Source of the DNA: an uncultured Pelagibacteraceae bacterium
GTDB lineage: Bacteria > Pseudomonadota > Alphaproteobacteria > Pelagibacterales > Pelagibacteraceae
Reading direction: 5' to 3'
Length of the DNA: 64,000 bases
Assembly (NCBI GenBank): GCA_902635975.1
Contig: CACPQC010000001.1
Coordinates: forward strand, 18,780 to 82,779
Below, one piece after another: positions 42,570 through 54,132 of this stretch (positions within the stretch are counted from its first letter, which is position 1; each line of letters begins with the position of its first letter). Under the pieces are notes generated by a model, which worked only from the letters and a program-made list of their open reading frames with translations, did no database searches and was not told where the DNA came from. The position numbers and the translations under genes were made by a program.

Positions 42570-43340
42570 CTAAGATGTCTCTCTTCTTAGTTGCTCAATT
42601 TTGATTTTTTTTTGAAGACTTCTGTTTTTATCGTATAAGAGATTAAATTTTATTTTTTGATTTGTCTTAATAGTAATATTTTTTGCATTTCTCACCTCAA
42701 TATTATCAGCTACTGCACTTATTGGTCTTTTTTTTGGATTTAAATTTTTAATTACTATTTTCGATCTGTCACTAACTATCTTCCCTTTCCATCTTCTTGG
42801 TCTAAAAGCGCTTATCGGTGAAATTGATAATTTTTTTGAATGAAGACTTAATATTGGACCATGAACAGATAGGTTATAAGCAGTGCTCCCTGCAGGAGTA
42901 GACACAAGAACACCATCTGAAACCAATTCTTTTATAATTTGTATAGATCCTTGACTGATCGACAATGAAGCTGCTTGTCTACTTTGTCTTAAAATTGATA
43001 CCTCATTTATTGCAATATGTTTTTTTATATTATTTTTGTAATTTTTAACAACCATTTCTAAAGGTGAAATTGAAACTGTTTTAGATCTAATAAAATTTTT
43101 GAAAAAATTCTTTGATGAAAATTTATTCATTAAAAAACCATAGTTTCCTGAGTTAACTCCATAAAATAATCTTTTAGATTTTTTATTTTTTTTTAATGTT
43201 TGAAGCATAAAGCCATCTCCACCAATCACTATTGTTCTGTTTGTTTTTTTTGGTTTAGCTTTTGAGAGTATTTTTAATAAGGATTTTTTAATCCTTAATG
43301 ATCTTAAATTTTTATCAGAAATAATTTGAAAATTTTTCAT
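42570..43340 (-). CDS. nadK: NAD kinase
   Basis: GGDGFML, NE and DGVLVSTPAGSTAYNLS motifs; start ATG 43340 (the longer ORF runs into tRNA-Leu). Confidence 0.95.
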   Translation of the reverse strand: MKNFQIISDKNLRSLRIKKSLLKILSKAKPKKTNRTIVIGGDGFMLQTLKKNKKSKRLFYGVNSGNYGFLMNKFSSKNFFKNFIRSKTVSISPLEMVVKNYKNNIKKHIAINEVSILRQSRQAASLSISQGSIQIIKELVSDGVLVSTPAGSTAYNLSVHGPILSLHSKKLSISPISAFRPRRWKGKIVSDRSKIVIKNLNPKKRPISAVADNIEVRNAKNITIKTNQKIKFNLLYDKNRSLQKKIKIEQLRRETS

Positions 43341-43345
43341 TTCAG

Positions 43346-43431
43346 TGGTGCCCTCGGCCAGACTCGAACTGGCACTCCGCAAGCGGCAAGGATTTTAAGT
43401 CCTTTGTGTCTACCAATTTCACCACGAGGGC
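43346..43431 (-). tRNA. tRNA-Leu(TAA)
   Basis: 86 nt with long variable arm, loop CTTAAAA, encoded CCA. Confidence 0.96.
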
Positions 43432-43571: not shown

Positions 43572-45728
43572 CTAAAATGTATTTACAATTTCTAGGGTTG
43601 CACCATATTCAGGTATTTGACTCATTAAGCTATAATTCGAACTCATTCTGATATCGAAACCATTTAAATCTCTCTCATAACTCAAAGATGCTTTATCATT
43701 ATCTAAAGTCATAGCATATTCGGTGTCATCTGTTCTTATATAACCAAATCCTAAATATAAAGTATCGCTATGAGAATTGTCACTTTGATTTCTTTCATAA
43801 ATAGTTATTACAGAAAAACCGTTCTCAGTTACTAAATCAAATCCAATATTTGCCCTTAAATTTTTTGAATCTTGACCGATAGATTTTGTATATTCTGTAG
43901 TTTCCGATAGGTAACGGTATGTTGCATCTGAAGACGGACTAAAATCTACTCCTAGCTCTAATCCACCATTTGGTTTAAAAGTAAAAGAATTAAAATTTAA
44001 AATGTCACTGATGGTAAAACCAGTAGATATCATTCCAGTTTCAATTGTTTGAGCTTTGTAAACTAAGGCTGCAGGACCTTTTTCTCTATATTTGGACAAT
44101 TCTGTATAGCTTAAATCAATTCTTAAATTAGGAGTAATATTAAAATCTTCTTTTTTATATGTTGTTAAGTAATTAAGTGAACCAAATATTTGTGCACCAT
44201 CTCTCTCTCCTGTTCTAGTGCTACCTCCCCCTTTTCTAACATGATCAGTCTTTAAAGTGCTCACTCCAAGAATACCTTCAGTAAATTTTTCATCATCATG
44301 AGGAAAAGTTCCATAAACAGATAAACTAAAAGACTCAGTATCTAAATTAGTTCCAGAGGTACCTACATCAACATCATCATTACCAAATCTAAGAGCATAA
44401 CCGTATAATCTATTTTTGCTTATCTTTTTATCCAAGCCAAGTGTAATACCTTTAGTATTAATTTTCTTTGATGATGAAGTAGATGTGTCACCTGTCTTAC
44501 CAAAACTCACACTACCTTCGCTCCAAAATGACCAGCTGTCAGATAACTTGTTTAAAGTATTATTTGATTTTTCCGATATTGGAATAACTTTTGCTAAAGA
44601 TGCTATTGTTTTATTTGGAAAGTTAAATTTAATGTTTTGATTACTTAATTGATCGCTTGTTCTATGTCTTCTTAACCAATACATACGGTTAAGAACTGGA
44701 GTACTTGCTTGAATAGCAATTTGTTTAGCAGTTGCAGTTTGGGACTCGATTGAGCTTAAAATATCTTTACCCTCATCAGTAGTAGTTATTGGATCATCAC
44801 AAGCACCATCAATTACGCTCCAATTACAAGTTAAATCAAATTCATAAACTTCTGCATCCTGATCAATTACAAACATTTTACTTCCATCAGAATTAAATGC
44901 TGTTTCTCTTGCGGCTCCTAAGCCGCTGTAGTTAGATAAATCAAGAGTCCCTTCAAGTGATAGAGTGGCGATACTAAAAGCTGTTGTTAATTTATATTGC
45001 TTAATTTTATTATCTGCATGGGAAGTTATATACATTTTAGTGCCGTCATAATTAAAAACAATTCCGTCTATATAATCTGGTTGAGGATCAGGTTGTACTT
45101 CTACAACATGAGTAACGCCTGATGTAATGACAAATGGGTTATCGAGTGTGTATTCATGAATTGATTGAGGGTTTTCAGCATTGTGGTTTCCAGTAACAAA
45201 CATTTTAGTTCCATCATTATTAAATGCAACTGAGGACGGTCTTTTTTGATTAGCGTTTGTACTATAACCTTGACCTGCATTATAAGTAGTACTTGCAGTA
45301 TCAATGTCATATGGTGTAGTCAACGTCCATTCAATAATAGTTTTATGATGATCAGCAATAAATATTTTTGTACCATCGTTATTGAATGCAACTTGCATAG
45401 CTCCATGAATATGAGTTGTTGAACCAGTATATGTACCTACATCTAAGCTGGTACGTAAGGTTGCAGTAGAAATATTGTAAGCTGTTGTTAAATCATACTC
45501 GTAAACCATATCATCTTTTGCTGTTGACTCTGGGGTCACTGCTTTCATAGATGATGTATACATTTTGGTTCCATCGTTATTAAAAGTTAATGCCATTGTA
45601 TGGTATCCAGTAGCTATAGTTACTTGTTCAACTGCTTTACTTCGCACAAGAGTTGGCTCCGCTATAGCTTTAGAAAAAAATATAGCTAAAAAAAATACAA
45701 TGTAATGAATTTTATAAATATTTTTCAC
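43572..45728 (-). CDS. Autotransporter-like outer-membrane protein with beta-propeller repeat passenger
   Basis: Signal peptide (AIA|E), five FNxDG[TS]K[MI][FY] repeats, C-terminal beta-barrel ending in Phe; GTG start. Confidence 0.8.
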   Translation of the reverse strand: MKNIYKIHYIVFFLAIFFSKAIAEPTLVRSKAVEQVTIATGYHTMALTFNNDGTKMYTSSMKAVTPESTAKDDMVYEYDLTTAYNISTATLRTSLDVGTYTGSTTHIHGAMQVAFNNDGTKIFIADHHKTIIEWTLTTPYDIDTASTTYNAGQGYSTNANQKRPSSVAFNNDGTKMFVTGNHNAENPQSIHEYTLDNPFVITSGVTHVVEVQPDPQPDYIDGIVFNYDGTKMYITSHADNKIKQYKLTTAFSIATLSLEGTLDLSNYSGLGAARETAFNSDGSKMFVIDQDAEVYEFDLTCNWSVIDGACDDPITTTDEGKDILSSIESQTATAKQIAIQASTPVLNRMYWLRRHRTSDQLSNQNIKFNFPNKTIASLAKVIPISEKSNNTLNKLSDSWSFWSEGSVSFGKTGDTSTSSSKKINTKGITLGLDKKISKNRLYGYALRFGNDDVDVGTSGTNLDTESFSLSVYGTFPHDDEKFTEGILGVSTLKTDHVRKGGGSTRTGERDGAQIFGSLNYLTTYKKEDFNITPNLRIDLSYTELSKYREKGPAALVYKAQTIETGMISTGFTISDILNFNSFTFKPNGGLELGVDFSPSSDATYRYLSETTEYTKSIGQDSKNLRANIGFDLVTENGFSVITIYERNQSDNSHSDTLYLGFGYIRTDDTEYAMTLDNDKASLSYERDLNGFDIRMSSNYSLMSQIPEYGATLEIVNTF

Positions 45729-45793
45729 AAAAATTAATCATCAATACCTCATAAAAATTAGAGAAATGAGTGTTAAAATTTAAAACATTACTG

Positions 45794-45887
45794 TTGAAAA
45801 GTCTAGATAGGACAAAATTCATGATGAATAAGTAAATTTTTTTTTATTTTATCCCTCTAGATCCGAGTTATCTTATAAAATTCTATA
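45794..45887. repeat. Intergenic repeat copy 2
   Basis: 45823-45853 matches copy 1 (one extra T); 45794-45831 matches copy 3 at 34/38 positions. Confidence 0.85.
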
Positions 45888-45937
45888 ATAATATGATATA
45901 AACTTTAGGTATTGCGCATGGCAACAGAACGTACCAT

Positions 45938-46531
45938 TTAATCCAGTTGAGACTCTACAAACTCCCAATTGATTAATTTTTCGTAAAAATTCTCTAAATA
46001 CTCAGGCCTTCTGTTTTTATAATCGACGTAATAAGAATGTTCCCACACGTCACAACCTAAAATAGGTTTCATATTTTGTATTAAAGTGTTTTCAGCGTTT
46101 GGAGTTTTACTAACTACTAACTTACCGTTGTTGATTGATAACCAACACCATCCAGAACCAAATTGAGTAATTCCTGCTTGAATAAACTGTTTTTTAAATT
46201 CATCTGTACTTCCAAAGTCTTTTTCAATTCTTTTTTTTAACTTTTCAGGCATTATACCTCCACCATTTGGCTTCATGCATTTCCAGAACATTATGTGGTT
46301 CCAATGTTGACTAGCATTATTAAAAATACCTGCTTTAGATTTATCTTCAGAAGAACTAATTATAATCTCCTCTAATGACATTTTAGACATATCAGTGTCT
46401 TTAATAAAATTATTTAAATTAGTTATATAAGTTTGGTGATGCTTACCATGATGAAGATCAAGAGTCTCCTCAGACATTATCGGAGCTAGTGCCGATTTTG
46501 AATAATCTAATTTTGGTAATTCAAATAACAT
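45938..46531 (-). CDS. sodB: Superoxide dismutase, Fe-type
   Basis: HHGKHH, FNNASQHWNH, TPNAEN, DVWEHSYY. Confidence 0.93.
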   Translation of the reverse strand: MLFELPKLDYSKSALAPIMSEETLDLHHGKHHQTYITNLNNFIKDTDMSKMSLEEIIISSSEDKSKAGIFNNASQHWNHIMFWKCMKPNGGGIMPEKLKKRIEKDFGSTDEFKKQFIQAGITQFGSGWCWLSINNGKLVVSKTPNAENTLIQNMKPILGCDVWEHSYYVDYKNRRPEYLENFYEKLINWEFVESQLD

Positions 46532-46868: not shown

Positions 46869-47002
46869 TCAAAACACTTATTAAATTAAAGATATTAAAA
46901 TTAATACTAATTGGTGGGGTATCAACAGCTTATGCTTTTAAAAAATACTGTGATCAAAAAAATGAAATGAAAAGTAAAAAAGATAAAAAACTTTTAAATT
47001 AA
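46865..47002 (+). CDS. Small hypothetical membrane-anchored protein, 45 aa (not in the ORF track)
   Basis: MIKTLIKLKILKLILIGGVSTAYAFKKYCDQKNEMKSKKDKKLLN; ATGA overlap with the upstream ORF. Confidence 0.55.
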   Translation: MIKTLIKLKILKLILIGGVSTAYAFKKYCDQKNEMKSKKDKKLLN

Positions 47003-47383
47003 AAGAAACACCAAACAAATCATTTGAACAAAATTAATTACTACTGAGATAAAGTGTGAATATTTAAATTTTTTATCCTGTCTTTCATCTCTATATTTAT
47101 TAATTAACGGCATTAATAAATAGTTTGATGTAGCGAATAAAATTGTGATTAATAAGATCAAATAAAAATCAACACCTAATTTACTTAAAAATAAAAATGT
47201 TAGTAGTACAACAAAACTAATCGCTAAATTAACATTATAATAAAAAGGAAATATTCTTCTAATAAACTTTCTAGCATTATCTTCATCTAGAGTAGTAAAT
47301 ACTACTGGAGCAATCACAAACGAGAAAAATAACATTATCCCTAGAATCATTGCTATTAAATAAATACTAACTTGTTCAATCAT
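46994..47383 (-). CDS. DUF4149/TMEM205-like membrane protein
   Basis: G.MLFFSFVIAPVVF..L...ARKFIRRIFP, P.IN..RD, F...H..SV.IN; 4 TM. Confidence 0.8.
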   Translation of the reverse strand: MIEQVSIYLIAMILGIMLFFSFVIAPVVFTTLDEDNARKFIRRIFPFYYNVNLAISFVVLLTFLFLSKLGVDFYLILLITILFATSNYLLMPLINKYRDERQDKKFKYSHFISVVINFVQMICLVFLLI

Positions 47384-47453
47384 AATTTAATTTTCAATTA
47401 AATTTTCTTCCTTCATTAATATTGATCTTCCATCATCAACAGTATTAAATCTT

Positions 47454-48434
47454 TTAATCTCTATCATAAACTTTTTCTCTCCAAATAGATCTTTTTTCTT
47501 CGAGATGGATATTCTCATCTTTTTTCTTTGTATGTCTAATATTCGTTTCAAATGATAAAGAGGAAGGAGGAAACTGGTAATTTTTATCTATAAAATTTAT
47601 TATTGACGAATAAGATGGATAAAAGTCTTTTTGTTCGTCAAAATTACTAAATTTCTTGTATTTTCTTGAAAATAAACCATTGCCATCATCATAAAATCTT
47701 TCTGTGGTTAAACCATATTTTTCATAAGGATAATAATTTAAATCATCTTTATTTATATGATTTACCCAACTGGCATAAGTCCAATATTCACCAAAAGAAC
47801 CATATATATTTGCAGCTTTTATTACTAACTCAATCCAATTTTGATCTGATTTGAAATGATCTTTAAATTTTAACTTAAGACTTTTTAAATACTTTTTTTT
47901 AAAAACCATATGATGTGAAGTAAATGTTCCTCTTATATCTTCGACAGGATTTATTTCTAACACATTGGTAATTAAATTTTTCCACGAATTTAAAACATCC
48001 TGGTTTCCATGTGATTTATCCTGTAGTAAAGCAAACTTTTCCTTTTTTTCATCAAATATAGGCCATGATCTTACTGGTAATAAATCTGAATCCCATACTA
48101 AAAAAACATCGTCTAATTCGTCTATAACATCACTAGCTCCTAATTTAATAATCTGTTGGTATAACCATCCAGGAGTATAATTAGGTTTATTTTGTGTTAT
48201 CCATGAAACAATATCAGTTTTTGTTAAACTGTATTTACTTAAAAAAAAATCATCCTCATCCAGCAATGTTAAATTTTCAATATCCCAAGAATTAGATTTG
48301 TCTTTTAAAATTTTTATCTCATGACTTGATGTTACGACATAAATTTGTTTTGGCTTATATTTTTGAGAAATTCCATCAAGAACTGCTCTTGTACTCCAAT
48401 TCACATGGTGAATCGGAATTACAAACTGGTACAT
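47454..48434 (-). CDS. DUF6492-like putative GT-A glycosyl/nucleotidyl-sugar transferase
   Basis: N-terminal FVIP, GWLYQQIIKL, FLVWDSD (DxD), FTSHHMVF, FGEYWTY. Confidence 0.6.
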   Translation of the reverse strand: MYQFVIPIHHVNWSTRAVLDGISQKYKPKQIYVVTSSHEIKILKDKSNSWDIENLTLLDEDDFFLSKYSLTKTDIVSWITQNKPNYTPGWLYQQIIKLGASDVIDELDDVFLVWDSDLLPVRSWPIFDEKKEKFALLQDKSHGNQDVLNSWKNLITNVLEINPVEDIRGTFTSHHMVFKKKYLKSLKLKFKDHFKSDQNWIELVIKAANIYGSFGEYWTYASWVNHINKDDLNYYPYEKYGLTTERFYDDGNGLFSRKYKKFSNFDEQKDFYPSYSSIINFIDKNYQFPPSSLSFETNIRHTKKKDENIHLEEKRSIWREKVYDRD

Positions 48435-48438
48435 TCTA

Positions 48439-50178
48439 TTAATTTAAATTTACTTCTTTTGTAATATTTTCATCTGCTTTAAAAACAGTAACTGGATCTT
48501 CAAGACCTGCATCTGAACAAAGAGGTTCAACTCCCAATCCTTTTCTAGGGTATTTTGAGACTATTATTTTATATTCTTGAATAATTTCTCTTAATTCAGA
48601 CTTGGTTAAATCATTAATATATTTACACTTTCCAATAGCAATTGGAACAGGAATAGCTAAGTTGCCTCCTCTTTTTTGAAGAATTTTATCAAAACCTTCA
48701 TTCATGCATTTCTCATCTAATAATATGTCATGCCATAAACTTAATTCGTATTCGCTAAATAACTTTAAAATTCTATGCAAATCTTTTTCACTTAACCAGC
48801 CTCTTTTGTAAGACATAAAAGAACTTAAAGTCATTTCAACACTTATGGCATGACCATGTAATAATCCCGCTTTAAGTTCAAAATTTGCACTTAATCCATG
48901 GCCAAATGCATGGTCTCTAATACTGTGAACTTCGTGTAAATTATCGTATTCACTCTCGACATAGCTCTTTAAAGACAGTCCGATAATTTTTTTCGATTTA
49001 GACACTATTTTATCTTGAGAATTACAATTAATTGTACCAAAGTGAGTTTTCATCAAATTAAGCCCAGTGTCCTCAAGTAAAGTAAACAATTCTTTATCTC
49101 TAATTGCTGCCATTTTATGAATTTCAGCAATCCCATGTCTAACCCAAGAAGTTTTCAAGCTTTTAAAAAATGATCGATCAGAAATATTAAGCACTGGAGC
49201 ATGAAAAGAGCCTAATAGATTTTTAAATCCACCAGCATCACAACATGATCTTGGACTTGGTCCACTATCAATTGCACTCACAACTGATGTTGACAACATT
49301 ATATAAGGAGTGCTTCGATGATAAATTGATGCAGCAAAAGCTCCTATATCTCCTATGACTCCACCACCAATTATTAAAATTGGTTCATTTCTATTTACAC
49401 CTAATTTTCTAAAATCCTCTACAATCTTCTCAACATTTTTAATATGCTTATCAACTTCCATAGCTCTATAAACCAATTTCTCTAATATAATAGAATGATG
49501 ATTAAAATAATTTTCAATATCTAATCCATAATTATCTTCAATATTTTGATCTATTAAACAAACACATCTTCCAAATGATTTGTAATTATCTCTTAAGAGG
49601 TGATTATCGACATTTAAGGTGTCCTCTTCCACTTTAATTGAAGTAAATGTATTTAAGTTCATTGTTGCTTCTATTTGTTGATAATCATTTGAGCTAACAA
49701 CATGTCCATTTGAATTTCTATAACTGGAAGTTGGATACAAAGCTAAGGGATTTTTCTGCTCATAATCTAAAATAAGCTGTTTATAAAAATCATGTTTGGA
49801 GCTATTAAGTAAATTTGAAATTAATTTTGCTCTTCCAAAATTTGTGTTACTAACTTTTACAGACAAAGATTTTAATTCACCAGATAATTGCTTACTAAAA
49901 GGTAATACTAGATAGGAAAGTTCAAGAATAAACTTTTCAGTAGTCAAGTTTAATGAAGTTTTTAGTATTCTTAAATGAGGTAATGACGAAATTGCGTTTA
50001 ATTCTAAAAATTCGTCAGATATTTTGAAGTCATAGGGATCTGCTTCAGCTAGACTTATTAATAAATCTTCAAAATAATTGTTATTTACAAAATATTCTAA
50101 TAAATTTTGATCTTCAGAAATGTTTATTTTGTTTAGGGTAAAATTTTTGGAAAAATATATAATTTTTTTTGAAATCAT
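48439..50178 (-). CDS. Sedoheptulose-7-phosphate cyclase, long-form DDGS (MysA)-like
   Basis: DHQS fold: IGGGVIGD, TSVVSAIDSG, AEIHK, NLHE..AFGH, LLHGHA, KRGGNL; GRCVCLIDQN start of core; ~170-aa N-terminal extension. Confidence 0.85.
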   Translation of the reverse strand: MISKKIIYFSKNFTLNKINISEDQNLLEYFVNNNYFEDLLISLAEADPYDFKISDEFLELNAISSLPHLRILKTSLNLTTEKFILELSYLVLPFSKQLSGELKSLSVKVSNTNFGRAKLISNLLNSSKHDFYKQLILDYEQKNPLALYPTSSYRNSNGHVVSSNDYQQIEATMNLNTFTSIKVEEDTLNVDNHLLRDNYKSFGRCVCLIDQNIEDNYGLDIENYFNHHSIILEKLVYRAMEVDKHIKNVEKIVEDFRKLGVNRNEPILIIGGGVIGDIGAFAASIYHRSTPYIMLSTSVVSAIDSGPSPRSCCDAGGFKNLLGSFHAPVLNISDRSFFKSLKTSWVRHGIAEIHKMAAIRDKELFTLLEDTGLNLMKTHFGTINCNSQDKIVSKSKKIIGLSLKSYVESEYDNLHEVHSIRDHAFGHGLSANFELKAGLLHGHAISVEMTLSSFMSYKRGWLSEKDLHRILKLFSEYELSLWHDILLDEKCMNEGFDKILQKRGGNLAIPVPIAIGKCKYINDLTKSELREIIQEYKIIVSKYPRKGLGVEPLCSDAGLEDPVTVFKADENITKEVNLN

Positions 50179-50372: not shown

Positions 50373-51179
50373 ATGCAAAAAAAGTTTACATATATAGTGT
50401 TCACAGATCTAGATGGCTCACTTTTACATAGAGACACATTTAAATTTGATCCAATCAAGGATTTTATTAAAAGCCTTCTAAATGAAGGAATAATAATGGT
50501 TCCTAATTCAAGCAAAACTGAAAATGAAATAGAAAATTTTAAAAAAGAACTTGGTATCGCGGTACCATTTATCTCAGAGAATGGCTCAGCTATTCATGGA
50601 CTAAATCTAATAAATCCAAACTTTCCGAATAAAATAATTCTTAGTAGAGAAAAAGAGGAATTACTGAAAATCTTTAATTCAAAAGTTCCTGAGGGGCTAC
50701 TAAAAAAATGTATTCAGATTTTTAAACTTACTACTAAAGAGCAAGAAAAAATATTTGGACAAAAAGATGAAAAACTTAAAAATGTTTTAAAGAGAAAATA
50801 TACTTTACCTTTGTTATTCAGTGGAGATAAAGTTGAAAAAAATAAGCTGGTAAAAATTTTAAATTCAAATTCATTAACTTTGCAAGAGGGTGGTCGAGTA
50901 ATAAACTTATGTGATAATGTTAATAAAGTGAAATCGATGAATAGAGTGATAAAAATTTTGAAAAACGTTAAAAATGAGATTAAAACTATTGGAGTTGGTG
51001 ATAATTTTAATGATTTAGAAATGTTGAAAAATTGTGATATTCCATGCTTGGTATTTAATGATCAGTTTAAACTTGATCAAATTAATATCAAGAATCTTAT
51101 ATTTTCAAATAAGCCATCACCTGAAGGCTGGGCTGATGTGATTAAAAAAGCTCTAGATAAATTAAGTTATAATGTCTAA
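50373..51179 (+). CDS. gpgP: Glucosyl/mannosyl-3-phosphoglycerate phosphatase (HAD-IIB)
   Basis: FTDLDGSLL, SSKT, FISENG, GGR, GDNFND. Confidence 0.88.
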   Translation: MQKKFTYIVFTDLDGSLLHRDTFKFDPIKDFIKSLLNEGIIMVPNSSKTENEIENFKKELGIAVPFISENGSAIHGLNLINPNFPNKIILSREKEELLKIFNSKVPEGLLKKCIQIFKLTTKEQEKIFGQKDEKLKNVLKRKYTLPLLFSGDKVEKNKLVKILNSNSLTLQEGGRVINLCDNVNKVKSMNRVIKILKNVKNEIKTIGVGDNFNDLEMLKNCDIPCLVFNDQFKLDQINIKNLIFSNKPSPEGWADVIKKALDKLSYNV

Positions 51180-51187
51180 AATTTGAT

Positions 51188-52408
51188 ATGAGCGAATTTT
51201 CTCAGAATGGAATTATTTCAACATTACATGATTTTGGAACAAGATCGACTGAAGAAATCGAAAAAGATTTATTAAAATTCTCTAAAGAAAGAAAAATGGA
51301 ATTAATTTTACCATGTCTTTATTCTGAATTAGAAGGTTCAGCTTTACCAAATATAGTAGAAGAAATAAGTAAAACTAAATATTTAGATCACGTTATAGTG
51401 GGACTTGATAGAGCTAATGAAAATCAAGCAAAAAAAGCTTGGAAATTTTTTAAAAAATTGAAGTCTCCTTTTTCAATTTTATGGAATGATGGACCTGCTT
51501 TAAAAAAACTAGATAAAGAGTTAAAAAAAAAAGATCTTGCTCCTAACGAATTAGGCAAAGGAAGAAATGTTTGGTATTGTCTTGGAATGTCTATTGCAAG
51601 AGACACTGCTCGGTCCGTTGCTCTCCATGATTGCGATATCAAAACTTATGATCGAAGAATGCTAGCAAAACTTTTTTATCCTGTGGTTAATCCGCTTTTT
51701 AATTTTGAATTTTGTAAAGGTTATTATCCAAGAATTGCAAATAATAAAATGAATGGACGAGTTGCAAGATTGCTTGTTTTTCCTCTGTTAACTGCCTTAG
51801 AAAAAACAATTGGTACAAGTGATTATTTGGAGTTTATGAAGTCGTTTAAGTATCCCTTAGCAGGAGAATTTTCTTTTAGACGTAACGTTTTACCAGAATT
51901 AAGAATATCCTCAGATTGGGGAATTGAAGTCGGAATTTTGTCAGAAATGCAAAGAAGTTTTTCTCCTCAAAATATATGTCAAGTTGATTTAGCAGATACT
52001 TATGATCACAAACATCAAATTTTATCCTCTGATGATGAAACTAAGGGGTTGTCAAGAATGTCCATCGATATCATTAAAACATTCATAAAAAAATTAGCTA
52101 CTCAAGGCAATTCATTTAGTAGAGAAAAATTTAGATCACTTAAAGCAACTTACTATAGATCTGCACTTGATTTGATAGATATATACAGAACTGATGCTGA
52201 TATGAATGGACTTCAATTTGACTCACACACTGAGGAAAAAGCTGTTGAATTATTTGCAGAAAATATAATGAAAGCTGGAGAATCTTTTATACTAAACCCA
52301 ATGGATACGCCCTTCATACCAACTTGGAGTAGAGTGAAAAGTGCAATTCCTAATTTTTTAAAAAGATTAGAGGAAGTAGTTAATGAAGATAATAAAAAAT
52401 ATAGCTAA
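51188..52408 (+). CDS. gpgS: Glucosyl-3-phosphoglycerate synthase (GT-A)
   Basis: F.QNGIISTLH, GKGRNVW, HDCDI, GRVARLL, YPLAGE, WGIEVG, YDHKHQ. Confidence 0.88.
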   Translation: MSEFSQNGIISTLHDFGTRSTEEIEKDLLKFSKERKMELILPCLYSELEGSALPNIVEEISKTKYLDHVIVGLDRANENQAKKAWKFFKKLKSPFSILWNDGPALKKLDKELKKKDLAPNELGKGRNVWYCLGMSIARDTARSVALHDCDIKTYDRRMLAKLFYPVVNPLFNFEFCKGYYPRIANNKMNGRVARLLVFPLLTALEKTIGTSDYLEFMKSFKYPLAGEFSFRRNVLPELRISSDWGIEVGILSEMQRSFSPQNICQVDLADTYDHKHQILSSDDETKGLSRMSIDIIKTFIKKLATQGNSFSREKFRSLKATYYRSALDLIDIYRTDADMNGLQFDSHTEEKAVELFAENIMKAGESFILNPMDTPFIPTWSRVKSAIPNFLKRLEEVVNEDNKKYS

Positions 52409-54132
52409 TGTTATCTACATCTGGTCAGAAGAAAATAGAAACAAAATTAAGAAATATATATCGCTCCTTATATTCAAAAATAGAAATCGAAATTTATTCT
52501 AAAGAAATCTCAGAAATAATTAAAAAATTTAACGAAAAAAATAAAAAAAAAAATAAGCTATTATCTGAAAAAACCTCAATTGTAATTTGCTATGGAGATA
52601 GTGTTTTTAACAGTAATCAAAAATATCAAATAAAAGGTTTTCAAAATTTTTACCAAAAAAAACTAAAAAATTATTTTAATACTGTTCATTTTTTACCATT
52701 TTACCCATCAAGTAGTGATAGTGGTTTTGCGGTAAAAGATCATTATAAAATTGATAACCGAATTGGAAGATGGTCTGATATTTCAAATTTTGCCAAAAAG
52801 AATGACGTAATGGCAGATATAGTAATTAATCATTCGTCTGCTAGAGGCTTATGGTTTAGAAACTTTTTGAAAAAAAAAAAACCTGGTAAAAACTATTTTT
52901 TAACAGTTAACTCTAAGTTCAATACTTCAAAAGTTGTAAGACCTAGAGATCATCAACTACTCAAAAAAATTAATATATTTAAGAAAAAAGAATACTTATG
53001 GAGAACTTTTAGTCCTGATCAGCTAGATTTAAATTTTAAAAATCCTGCAGTTTTATTACGATTTATTAAGATAATGATAAATCTTTTAAATCACGGCGTA
53101 ACAATTTTTAGATTGGATGCAATTGCCTATCTTTGGAAGGAAAGTGGTTCTAAATGCATAAATTTGAAACAAACTCACGAAATTATAAAACTTTTAAGAC
53201 TAATTTGTGGTTTTTTGAATGTGAAAACCATCTTAGTTACAGAAACTAATTTACCAGAGAAAGAAAATTTAAGTTATTTTGGAAAAAAAGATGAAGCTAA
53301 TTGGATTTATAATTTTTCCTTATCTCCCTTATTAATTCATGCTTTTTTATTTGAAGATAGCTCTTATTTGACTAGATGGAGTAAAAAATTACCCGCCACA
53401 AAACAAGGCAATAATTATCTTAACTTTATTGCTTCTCATGATGGTATAGGAATGAGACCAGCTGAGGGAATTCTAAGTAAAAAAACAATTAGAAATTTGC
53501 TAAATAGATTAAAAAAAAATGGTTCAAAATTTTCTTTTAGAAAGATTAAAAATAAATCTAAAAAGGTTTATGAAGCAAATATAACAGTTTTTAACGCTTT
53601 AAAAAAGTCTGATGCTGATAAAAAAGGCAAATTTTACTTTGAAAGATACATTTCAGCTCATGCAATAATGATTTCCTTTGAGGGTGTTCCAGCAATATAT
53701 TTTAATTCATTGTTTGGTACATCAAATGATGAGTCCAAATATATAATAACTGGAAATAATAGAGACGTAAATCGATACCGATGGAACCAAAAAGTTATTC
53801 TAAATCACCTTAAAAACTCAAAATCTAAACAAAGTATTTTCTATAAAAGCTTAACTAATCTTTTAAATATTAAATCAAAACAAAAAGCTTTCCATCCAAA
53901 TGCTTCAAGAACAACTCTGAATATTGGTTCAAAAATATTTTGTTTTAAGAGAACAAGTATTGATAAAAAACAATCAATTATTTGTGTAACTAATCTGTCT
54001 TCCAAAAATCAAAAACCTAATTTAAAAAAATTAAGTAATTATAGGGACCTGATAAATCCGAATTTAAAATTAAAAAAAGAAACCTCATTAACATTAAAAC
54101 CATTCCAAACGGTATGGTTAACAAATAACTAA
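52408..54132 (+). CDS. GH13_18 phosphorylase, probably glucosylglycerate phosphorylase
   Basis: HFLPFYP.SSDSGF, RLDAIAYLWK, TETN, ASHDGIG, YEANIT. Confidence 0.85.
   Translation: MLSTSGQKKIETKLRNIYRSLYSKIEIEIYSKEISEIIKKFNEKNKKKNKLLSEKTSIVICYGDSVFNSNQKYQIKGFQNFYQKKLKNYFNTVHFLPFYPSSSDSGFAVKDHYKIDNRIGRWSDISNFAKKNDVMADIVINHSSARGLWFRNFLKKKKPGKNYFLTVNSKFNTSKVVRPRDHQLLKKINIFKKKEYLWRTFSPDQLDLNFKNPAVLLRFIKIMINLLNHGVTIFRLDAIAYLWKESGSKCINLKQTHEIIKLLRLICGFLNVKTILVTETNLPEKENLSYFGKKDEANWIYNFSLSPLLIHAFLFEDSSYLTRWSKKLPATKQGNNYLNFIASHDGIGMRPAEGILSKKTIRNLLNRLKKNGSKFSFRKIKNKSKKVYEANITVFNALKKSDADKKGKFYFERYISAHAIMISFEGVPAIYFNSLFGTSNDESKYIITGNNRDVNRYRWNQKVILNHLKNSKSKQSIFYKSLTNLLNIKSKQKAFHPNASRTTLNIGSKIFCFKRTSIDKKQSIICVTNLSSKNQKPNLKKLSNYRDLINPNLKLKKETSLTLKPFQTVWLTNN

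Follow-up and report, generated by a model that had tools for sequence, protein, structure and literature searches.

A long-form desmethyl-4-deoxygadusol synthase-type cyclase and a Stealth-like DUF6492 protein form a conserved gene pair in SAR11, cyanobacteria and Bacteroidota, usually without mycosporine genes

What does a sugar-phosphate cyclase of the desmethyl-4-deoxygadusol synthase type (DDGS, or MysA) make in a SAR11 genome where the customary mycosporine genes do not accompany it? The question is raised by a 64,000-nt stretch of DNA (the window) from an uncultured Pelagibacteraceae bacterium (assembly GCA_902635975.1, contig CACPQC010000001.1, positions 18,780 to 82,779), for which an original prediction had proposed that an orphan cyclase and a neighbouring DUF6492-like transferase feed a new cyclitol pathway. 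The three minus-strand open reading frames (ORFs) behind this proposal are present where it had placed them, with 4 nt between the cyclase and DUF6492 genes. The unit is a real, conserved variant of the DDGS pathway with a Stealth-like tailoring enzyme, usually found without mycosporine genes. Because the long DDGS pairs with a gene of sugar-transferase fold and not with the usual sunscreen genes, its product is likely an undescribed, nitrogen-free protective molecule. Our leading interpretation, to which we assign a probability of roughly 35%, is that the two genes make a nitrogen-free C7 cyclitol conjugate, desmethyl-4-deoxygadusol (DDG) capped with a sugar-1-phosphate.

The cyclase and DUF6492 genes are a conserved two-gene unit. 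A scan of GTDB species genomes returned at least 508 cyclase relatives, the best 80 of which were inspected (33 loci from Pelagibacteraceae, 42 from cyanobacteria, three from Bacteroidota and two unlabelled). As the original prediction had anticipated, the pairing recurs: a DUF6492 gene lay directly after the cyclase in 77 of these 80 loci, in SAR11, cyanobacteria and Bacteroidota alike, which is far beyond chance. The loci without an adjacent DUF6492 gene were L069, L076 and L079, the last of which ends 433 bases after the cyclase. The pair is not a SAR11 feature, since 44 of the 47 non-SAR11 loci carry it. Nor is the DUF4149 gene, which the original prediction had noted beside the pair, part of the conserved unit; of 29 close SAR11 loci 15 had it, of the 51 others none, and no further gene recurred across phyla beside the pair in the 80 loci. 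Among 300 evenly drawn genomes of the same genus, each at least 80% complete, the cyclase was found in eight, with DUF6492 adjacent in the same eight. A sample of 151 cyanobacterial genomes (24 cyclase matches, 20 loci examined) comprised four with the long form, centre genome included, five with mid-length and 14 with canonical MysA. The partner clade was confined to the four long-form genomes (three intact copies and one broken), apart from one weak distant match; the 19 sampled genomes in which every MysA is of a shorter form lacked it. Within those four, the partner was adjacent to the cyclase in two, on another contig in one and an adjacent broken remnant in one; this remnant (L122:5811-6020) directly follows an intact long cyclase. 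Pairwise identities of cyclase and partner were correlated (Spearman 0.89 over 73 loci, among which kin are not independent; 0.65 outside SAR11). No cyclase-partner fusion was seen among 7999 longer candidates, which is weak evidence, and no DHQS (dehydroquinate synthase) domain was present in any of 30 partner relatives scanned. The partner probably acts on the product of the cyclase.

By sequence and modelled structure the cyclase belongs with DDGS/MysA and not with AroB, in agreement with the original assignment: a DDGS is its best structural match, two of three fingerprint residues are of DDGS type, the tree places it there, and a separate aroB is present in four of four better-assembled carriers. 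It is a variant of a known enzyme. Pfam models DHQ_synthase and DHQS_C both matched. A sequence search of the PDB placed Anabaena DDGS (5TPR, Ava_3858) first (E 5e-68), followed by the EEVS (synthase of 2-epi-5-epi-valiolone) ValA (4P53, E 5e-44) and DHQS entries at 9e-26 or weaker. The AlphaFold model (71 sequences, pLDDT 91.5) superposed on 5TPR with a TM score of 0.95 over 400 residues (rmsd 1.5, 32% identity over the structural alignment), and the structural Z score was 55.8 for 5TPR, ValA reaching 49.2 and the best DHQS 38.3. Sites separating EEVS (Leu267, Asp281, His360) from MysA (Glu254, Ala268, Thr347) are given in PMC10666671. In the sequence alignment to the PDB entries (numbering offsets of 34 for 5TPR and 6 for 4P53), E410 and A424 occupy the positions of DDGS Glu254 and Ala268, and all three EEVS residues are missing, with E410, A424 and K502 in their place. 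A lysine at the K502 position occurs in all five mid-length MysA from mysABCD operons. P307, R310, Y406, H423 and K502 are common to the long forms and to all five mid-length MysA (435-482 aa) and are therefore compatible with feeding a mycosporine operon.

The motifs by which the cyclase had been recognised could be located in the translation: G203-RC..D210-x-N212, L439-LHGHA, P144-x-A-x-YPTS-x-YR, M294-LSTS, G306-PSPR, Y406-V-x-SEY and K502-RGGNL. The motif written NLHE..A[FY]GH is also present (N413-LHE...A424-FGH), its spacing having been misjudged, as seven and not two residues separate E from A. The YPTSxYR stretch, offered as a mark of the N-terminal extension, lies outside it: MysA of 435-482 aa align from residue 147-148 (one from 98), and the true extension, wholly helical in the model, ends at about residue 142. 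This extension is missing from canonical MysA and from four of five mid-length MysA alignments; it has no sequence relative in the PDB and no usable Atlas match. Two quickly built catalytic-domain trees, one of 68 rows that omitted 25 cyanobacterial long forms and one of 42 rows, with SH-aLRT (approximate likelihood-ratio) support only and no EEVS sequence among the rows, recovered the long forms as a clade (100), sister to the mid-length MysA of full mysABCD operons (95 and 97), and separated long forms plus MysA from AroB (99 and 100); the window clade sits on a long stem branch. Because of the kinship with mid-length MysA, the long forms that face mysBCD genes and the separate aroB, the product of the cyclase is, with good confidence, predicted to be DDG.

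The partner P0002 matched DUF6492 (E 8.7e-13), and its model (pLDDT 93.3, pTM 0.92, 41 sequences) has a predicted GT-A (glycosyltransferase A) fold. It had been described as a DxD-containing, glycosyltransferase-like protein; the DxD motif (D115-S-D117) and the fold hold, and by structural Z scores the protein resembles Stealth phosphotransferases more than plain glycosyltransferases. In the wider structural search the top four matches were Stealth chains, namely CpsY (8J2N, Z 14.5, rmsd 3.7, 226 aligned) and GNPTAB (7S6N, 14.1, with further chains at 13.9 and 12.9), followed outside this family by LARGE1 (11.1), Kre2 (10.5) and LgtC (9.4). A profile of 62 DUF6492 proteins aligned to one of 10 Stealth proteins with probability 71 and E 3.7e-5 over 234 columns, against E 0.42 for the GpgS control; a single Stealth sequence against a narrow DUF6492 alignment gave E 0.23, so the signal appears only with deeper profiles. 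In this alignment D115-S-D117 falls on the Stealth NDD, H174 on the histidine of conserved region 3 (CR3; His956), and the third, metal-binding Asp is kept; the CR2-like segment of DUF6492 likewise ends at the metal-binding motif. Stealth enzymes transfer sugar-1-phosphate and not sugar (PMC11418123, PMC10668966), and in GNPTAB ribose and metal are bound by the NDD, His956 acts as base, and Arg986 and Asn1151 are needed (PMC11418123).

Seven residues were invariant in all 73 paired partners (D115, D117, H174, H175, E216, R246 and E296), and the paired clade has in addition a basic, invariant C-terminal motif (R300, H301, H310, E312), missing from three more distant relatives, which is a candidate acceptor site. 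A search of five sequences for Stealth CR2 gave no match in any of them, controls included. By modelled fold and part of the active site, DUF6492 likely works most like a Stealth enzyme, without being a member of that family by sequence. Transfer of a sugar-phosphate is given slightly better than even odds, and transfer of a sugar slightly worse. A full-text literature search, with most subscription papers outside its reach, found no paper naming DUF6492. Distant DUF6492-like domains occur in long, eukaryote-looking proteins, fused to sulfotransferase or MFS transporter domains (P0267, P0273, P0289, P0292; P0272, P0281, P0312).

As the original prediction had noted, neither mysB nor mysC lies beside the window cyclase, and neither was found in SAR11 carriers. 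A Bacteroidota MysC query, which matches cyanobacterial MysC at E about 1e-100, found no MysC in 35 of 35 SAR11 carrier genomes and detected it in eight of 47 non-SAR11 carriers (39 had none). A second, cyanobacterial query, whose positive control worked, found none in four carriers 87-97% complete, which may overlap the 35. Full-length MysB-like matches (E 1e-53 or better) were restricted to eight of the 80 genomes, the same eight as for MysC, two of the 47 being left out of this count. In SAR11 the MysB match was a short generic O-methyltransferase that is also present in five of five near-complete genomes without the cyclase. One such gene lies just outside the window (G000:C1:15498-16001), belongs to a generic family 3 common in SAR11 with and without the cyclase, and has an N-terminus unlike MysB. 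Seven SAR11 loci have, close to the unit, an ATP-grasp gene of circularly permuted type, which is not MysC. In cyanobacteria, mysB and mysC were adjacent in 17 of 17 shorter-MysA loci (five mid-length, 12 canonical) versus none of three long-form loci. The pair therefore usually works without a mycosporine pathway, MysC having been found in none of 35 SAR11 and eight of 47 other carriers.

Long forms do stand divergent to mysBCD in Bacteroidota L069 and L094 and in L119. Both Bacteroidota loci (L069:2611-9743, L094:2787-10843) are complete mycosporine clusters with long cyclase, mysB, mysC, mysD, a TauD-type dioxygenase and a HAD hydrolase. L069 has a second, 382-aa DHQS-like gene, which we take to be EboD-like. 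Among the six non-Bacteroidota mysC genomes, one has a second long cyclase beside mysBCD, and five have mysBCD without a cyclase in the 8-13 kb stretch examined (three stretches reach a contig end). These five (L115, L116, L117, L118 and L120) carry cyclase plus DUF6492 elsewhere in the genome, a pattern consistent with supply of DDG in trans by the long cyclase. The lack of mysA in some mycosporine clusters is listed as an open point in a 2023 review (PMC10666671). Nothing was found of what the original prediction had named as evidence against itself, namely clustering with true AroB, a canonical mysBC elsewhere in the genome, or a pairing that does not recur.

In the proposed pathway, the cyclase would convert sedoheptulose 7-phosphate to DDG, and the DUF6492 enzyme would then transfer a sugar-1-phosphate, in a metal-dependent reaction, from a nucleoside diphosphate (NDP)-sugar onto a hydroxyl of DDG. 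The sugar-phosphate cap would replace the O-methyl group added by MysB in the mycosporine pathway; the uncapped enediol of DDG is prone to oxidation. Since P0002 has no membrane segment, the product is expected to be a soluble cytoplasmic solute. Transaldolase was present in four of four well-assembled carriers. In genomes with mysBCD and without mysA, the same long cyclase would supply DDG to mycosporine synthesis. SAR11 commonly lacks glycine-serine synthesis, and its offshore genera carry genes for glucosylglycerate, a nitrogen-saving osmolyte (PMC12636525); a nitrogen-free solute would accordingly suit SAR11 where a glycine-consuming MysC would not. When nitrogen and glycine are short, such a molecule would more plausibly buffer redox state or act as a compatible solute than serve as an optical filter. 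Taking an extinction coefficient of about 2e4 per M per cm and a path of 0.3 micrometre, we estimate that 10 mM would absorb about 1% of light and 100 mM about 13%, which makes the sunscreen role suggested originally doubtful for so small a cell.

Several observations weigh against this interpretation. The set of 80 best loci is biased toward the query, and the long cyclases of L069, L076 and L119 have no adjacent partner while the partner of G299 is on another contig; the cyclase can therefore work without it. The third DDGS fingerprint site is K502, neither the Thr347 of DDGS nor the His360 of EEVS, and the SAR11 clade of the window has changes of its own near the active site (H415, G428, A431, E448). 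For the partner, Foldseek put CpsY, LgtC, LARGE1, GNPTAB and glycogenin at similar E-values. None of 41 DUF6492 members matched a Stealth Pfam family (CR1-CR4), identity to Stealth is 10-13%, and DSD stands in place of NDD. The profile alignment shows neither an arginine aligned to Arg986/Arg419, in a low-confidence stretch, nor the CxND of CR4; the invariant R246 and R300 could substitute for the Stealth arginine. GT8 was likewise missing from the Pfam matches of these 41 members, and the profile comparison had GpgS as its control. Finally, with the window's genome (747 kb) at 57% completeness and mostly partial assemblies among the SAR11 carriers (0.7-1.2 Mb), single absences are weak, and the weight of the absences rests on the number of genomes.

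Of the alternatives, the one closest at hand is that the partner is an ordinary metal-dependent glycosyltransferase making a DDG glycoside. A plain glycosyltransferase is nearly as likely as a Stealth-like partner, and the glycoside as a whole, though doubtful, deserves serious attention: the motif is a true DxD and not NDD, LgtC, LARGE1 and glycogenin are among the top Foldseek matches, and the Stealth arginine and CxND were not found. The invariant K97 and E216 presumably lie where GT8 enzymes have conserved residues. Mycosporines with sugar attached are also known, and the transferases responsible have yet to be identified (PMC10666671). Against this reading, the wide structural search puts Stealth chains ahead of LARGE1 by more than 3 Z and of LgtC by 5, and the residue aligned to the Stealth catalytic base is an invariant histidine. 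It is improbable that this is an ordinary mycosporine gene, the cyclase feeding MysB and MysC elsewhere and the partner glycosylating finished mycosporines. In favour of such a route, the pair in L094 is part of a full mysBCD-mysH cluster, and in five carriers the stretch examined holds mysBCD and no cyclase; it is opposed by the failure to find MysC in 35 of 35 SAR11 and 39 of 47 other carriers, or in four carriers with the second query, by the generic nature of the SAR11 O-methyltransferase match, shared with five of five near-complete genomes lacking the cyclase, and by the absence of the partner from the 19 genomes with only shorter MysA.

Other readings change the chemistry of the cyclase or the fate of its product. 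There is an outside chance that the cyclase forms some other C7 cyclitol, be it an isomer of valiolone or another ring, which the partner later modifies; five positions in the active-site region unlike canonical MysA, four more in the window clade and its long stem branch would agree with it. Yet the five changes are common to MysA of intact mysABCD operons, long forms lie within mysBCD clusters in three genomes, and EEVS Leu267, Asp281 and His360 are all absent. The cyclitol might also be a building block of a cell-surface glycan, phosphodiester-linked by a Stealth-like polymerase, given that bacterial Stealth enzymes build capsule polymers (PMC10668966) and that the unit lies in a variable region by tRNA-Leu, which in some SAR11 loci also holds genes for glycosyltransferases and methyltransferases. 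This too seems improbable, as no gene for an exporter, a flippase or another glycan function is a recurrent neighbour of the pair across phyla and the partner has no membrane segment. To read the cyclase as a shikimate-pathway AroB that has diverged is scarcely credible. It does match DHQ_synthase and has a lysine at the position of the phosphate-binding lysine of DHQS, and no other aroB was found in the window's own, 57% complete genome; however, it scored 146 against a cut-off of 305 for the AroB equivalog TIGR01357, a separate aroB (61-64% identical to SAR11 AroB) was present in all four carriers 87-97% complete, the trees separate the two with support of 99-100, and only eight of 300 genus genomes have the cyclase at all.

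The unit stands beside several known systems. It shares with MysA (Ava_3858/5TPR) the fold, the Glu254/Ala268 fingerprint, the HGHA motif and the same side of the tree, and differs in an extra 142-residue helical N-terminus, in Lys for Thr347 together with four other clade changes, and in having DUF6492 and not mysB/mysC as its partner gene. With mysABCD clusters, including mysA-less ones (for example in Halothece sp. PCC 7418), it would share the first predicted intermediate, whereas it has no adjacent mysB, mysC or mysD and no nitrogen-adding step. Halothece Ap3858 is presumably itself a long form, and a divergent DDGS clade was reportedly described by Osborn in 2017 or Waditee-Sirisattha in 2014. 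Stealth enzymes, the nearest GT-A structures, act on glycans, unlike the small cyclitol proposed as acceptor here. The gadusol (EEVS plus MT-Ox) and ebo (EboD) pathways also combine a DHQS-fold cyclase with few tailoring genes, and the end product of the latter is also unknown (PMC12904256); in contrast to both, the window cyclase is DDGS-type without EEVS residues, and no MT-Ox or ebo genes recur beside it. A full-text search, largely without subscription papers, found no paper joining SAR11, mysA and mycosporine and none on a distant Halothece DDG synthase. For the most abundant heterotrophs of the ocean, the unit would provide a path of two genes to a marine metabolite not described before; it would also open DUF6492 to functional study for the first time and may explain the absence of mysA from some mycosporine clusters. 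Its reach is limited by its presence in about 3% of sampled genus genomes. More speculatively, and with the odds clearly against it, DUF6492 may be a sister family of the Stealth phosphotransferases acting on a small molecule, making with the long DDGS a new class of nitrogen-free cyclitol-phospho-sugar solutes in oligotrophic SAR11, cyanobacteria and Bacteroidota, the same cyclase being the missing DDG source of mysA-less clusters.

The origin of the unit was addressed through distribution, composition and phylogeny. For the horizontal acquisition proposed originally no donor can be named: SAR11 has two versions of the unit, which are about 51% identical, and neither of them falls inside the group of cyanobacterial forms. 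Two separate SAR11 acquisitions are unsupported, a single clade not being rejected (approximately unbiased test, p-AU 0.654). The unit is patchy, lies in a variable region and has a composition like its neighbours: GC content at third codon positions (GC3) was 0.17-0.18 versus 0.14-0.25, with no sign of recent transfer by this measure. Contigs from four marine RNA runs, drawn from two studies, span both genes and the junction between them, and 18 further runs had small shares; as DNA carry-over is possible and the contigs do not show the strand, this hints only weakly at expression. A promoter and terminator scan of the unit gave signals no more frequent than in shuffles.

Table 1. Features of the cyclase locus, in window coordinates
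Feature	Position	Strand	Basis
Long-form DDGS/MysA-clade sugar-phosphate cyclase P0001, 579 aa	48439..50178	-	ORF, Pfam, PDB search, tree, model
All-helical N-terminal extension of the cyclase, residues 1-142	49753..50178	-	Alignments and AlphaFold model
DUF6492 protein P0002, 326 aa, predicted GT-A fold, conserved partner of the long cyclase	47454..48434	-	
DUF4149 four-helix membrane protein P0003, 129 aa, variable neighbour	46994..47383	-	

The closest relatives of the cyclase are from Pelagibacteraceae (86-97% identical). A gap of 70 nt separates the DUF6492 gene from that of P0003 (Table 1), which matched DUF4149 (E 2.1e-16) and has the four hydrophobic segments expected from its description as a four-helix protein. 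The cyclase and DUF6492 genes lie within a variable stretch after a tRNA-Leu(TAA) gene (43346-43431), which borders the region; the longest NAD kinase ORF (42570-43431, TTG start 43382) overlaps this tRNA, so the true start is probably later. An autotransporter with a repeat passenger occupies 43572-46531 (minus strand), with an Fe/Mn superoxide dismutase gene downstream; the latter is no evidence for an antioxidant role, being present in only two of 29 related loci. Divergent from the cyclase, phosphatase, GpgS-like synthase and GH13 phosphorylase-like genes for glucosylglycerate lie on the plus strand at 50373-54132, a gene set already described for offshore SAR11 genera (PMC12636525) and adjoining the cyclase in 21 of 29 close SAR11 loci. 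In nine of the 29, a sugar-type ABC transporter stands between these genes and the cyclase (e.g. L028:2839-7846), its binding protein and two permeases being co-oriented upstream of the cyclase and its ATPase divergent.

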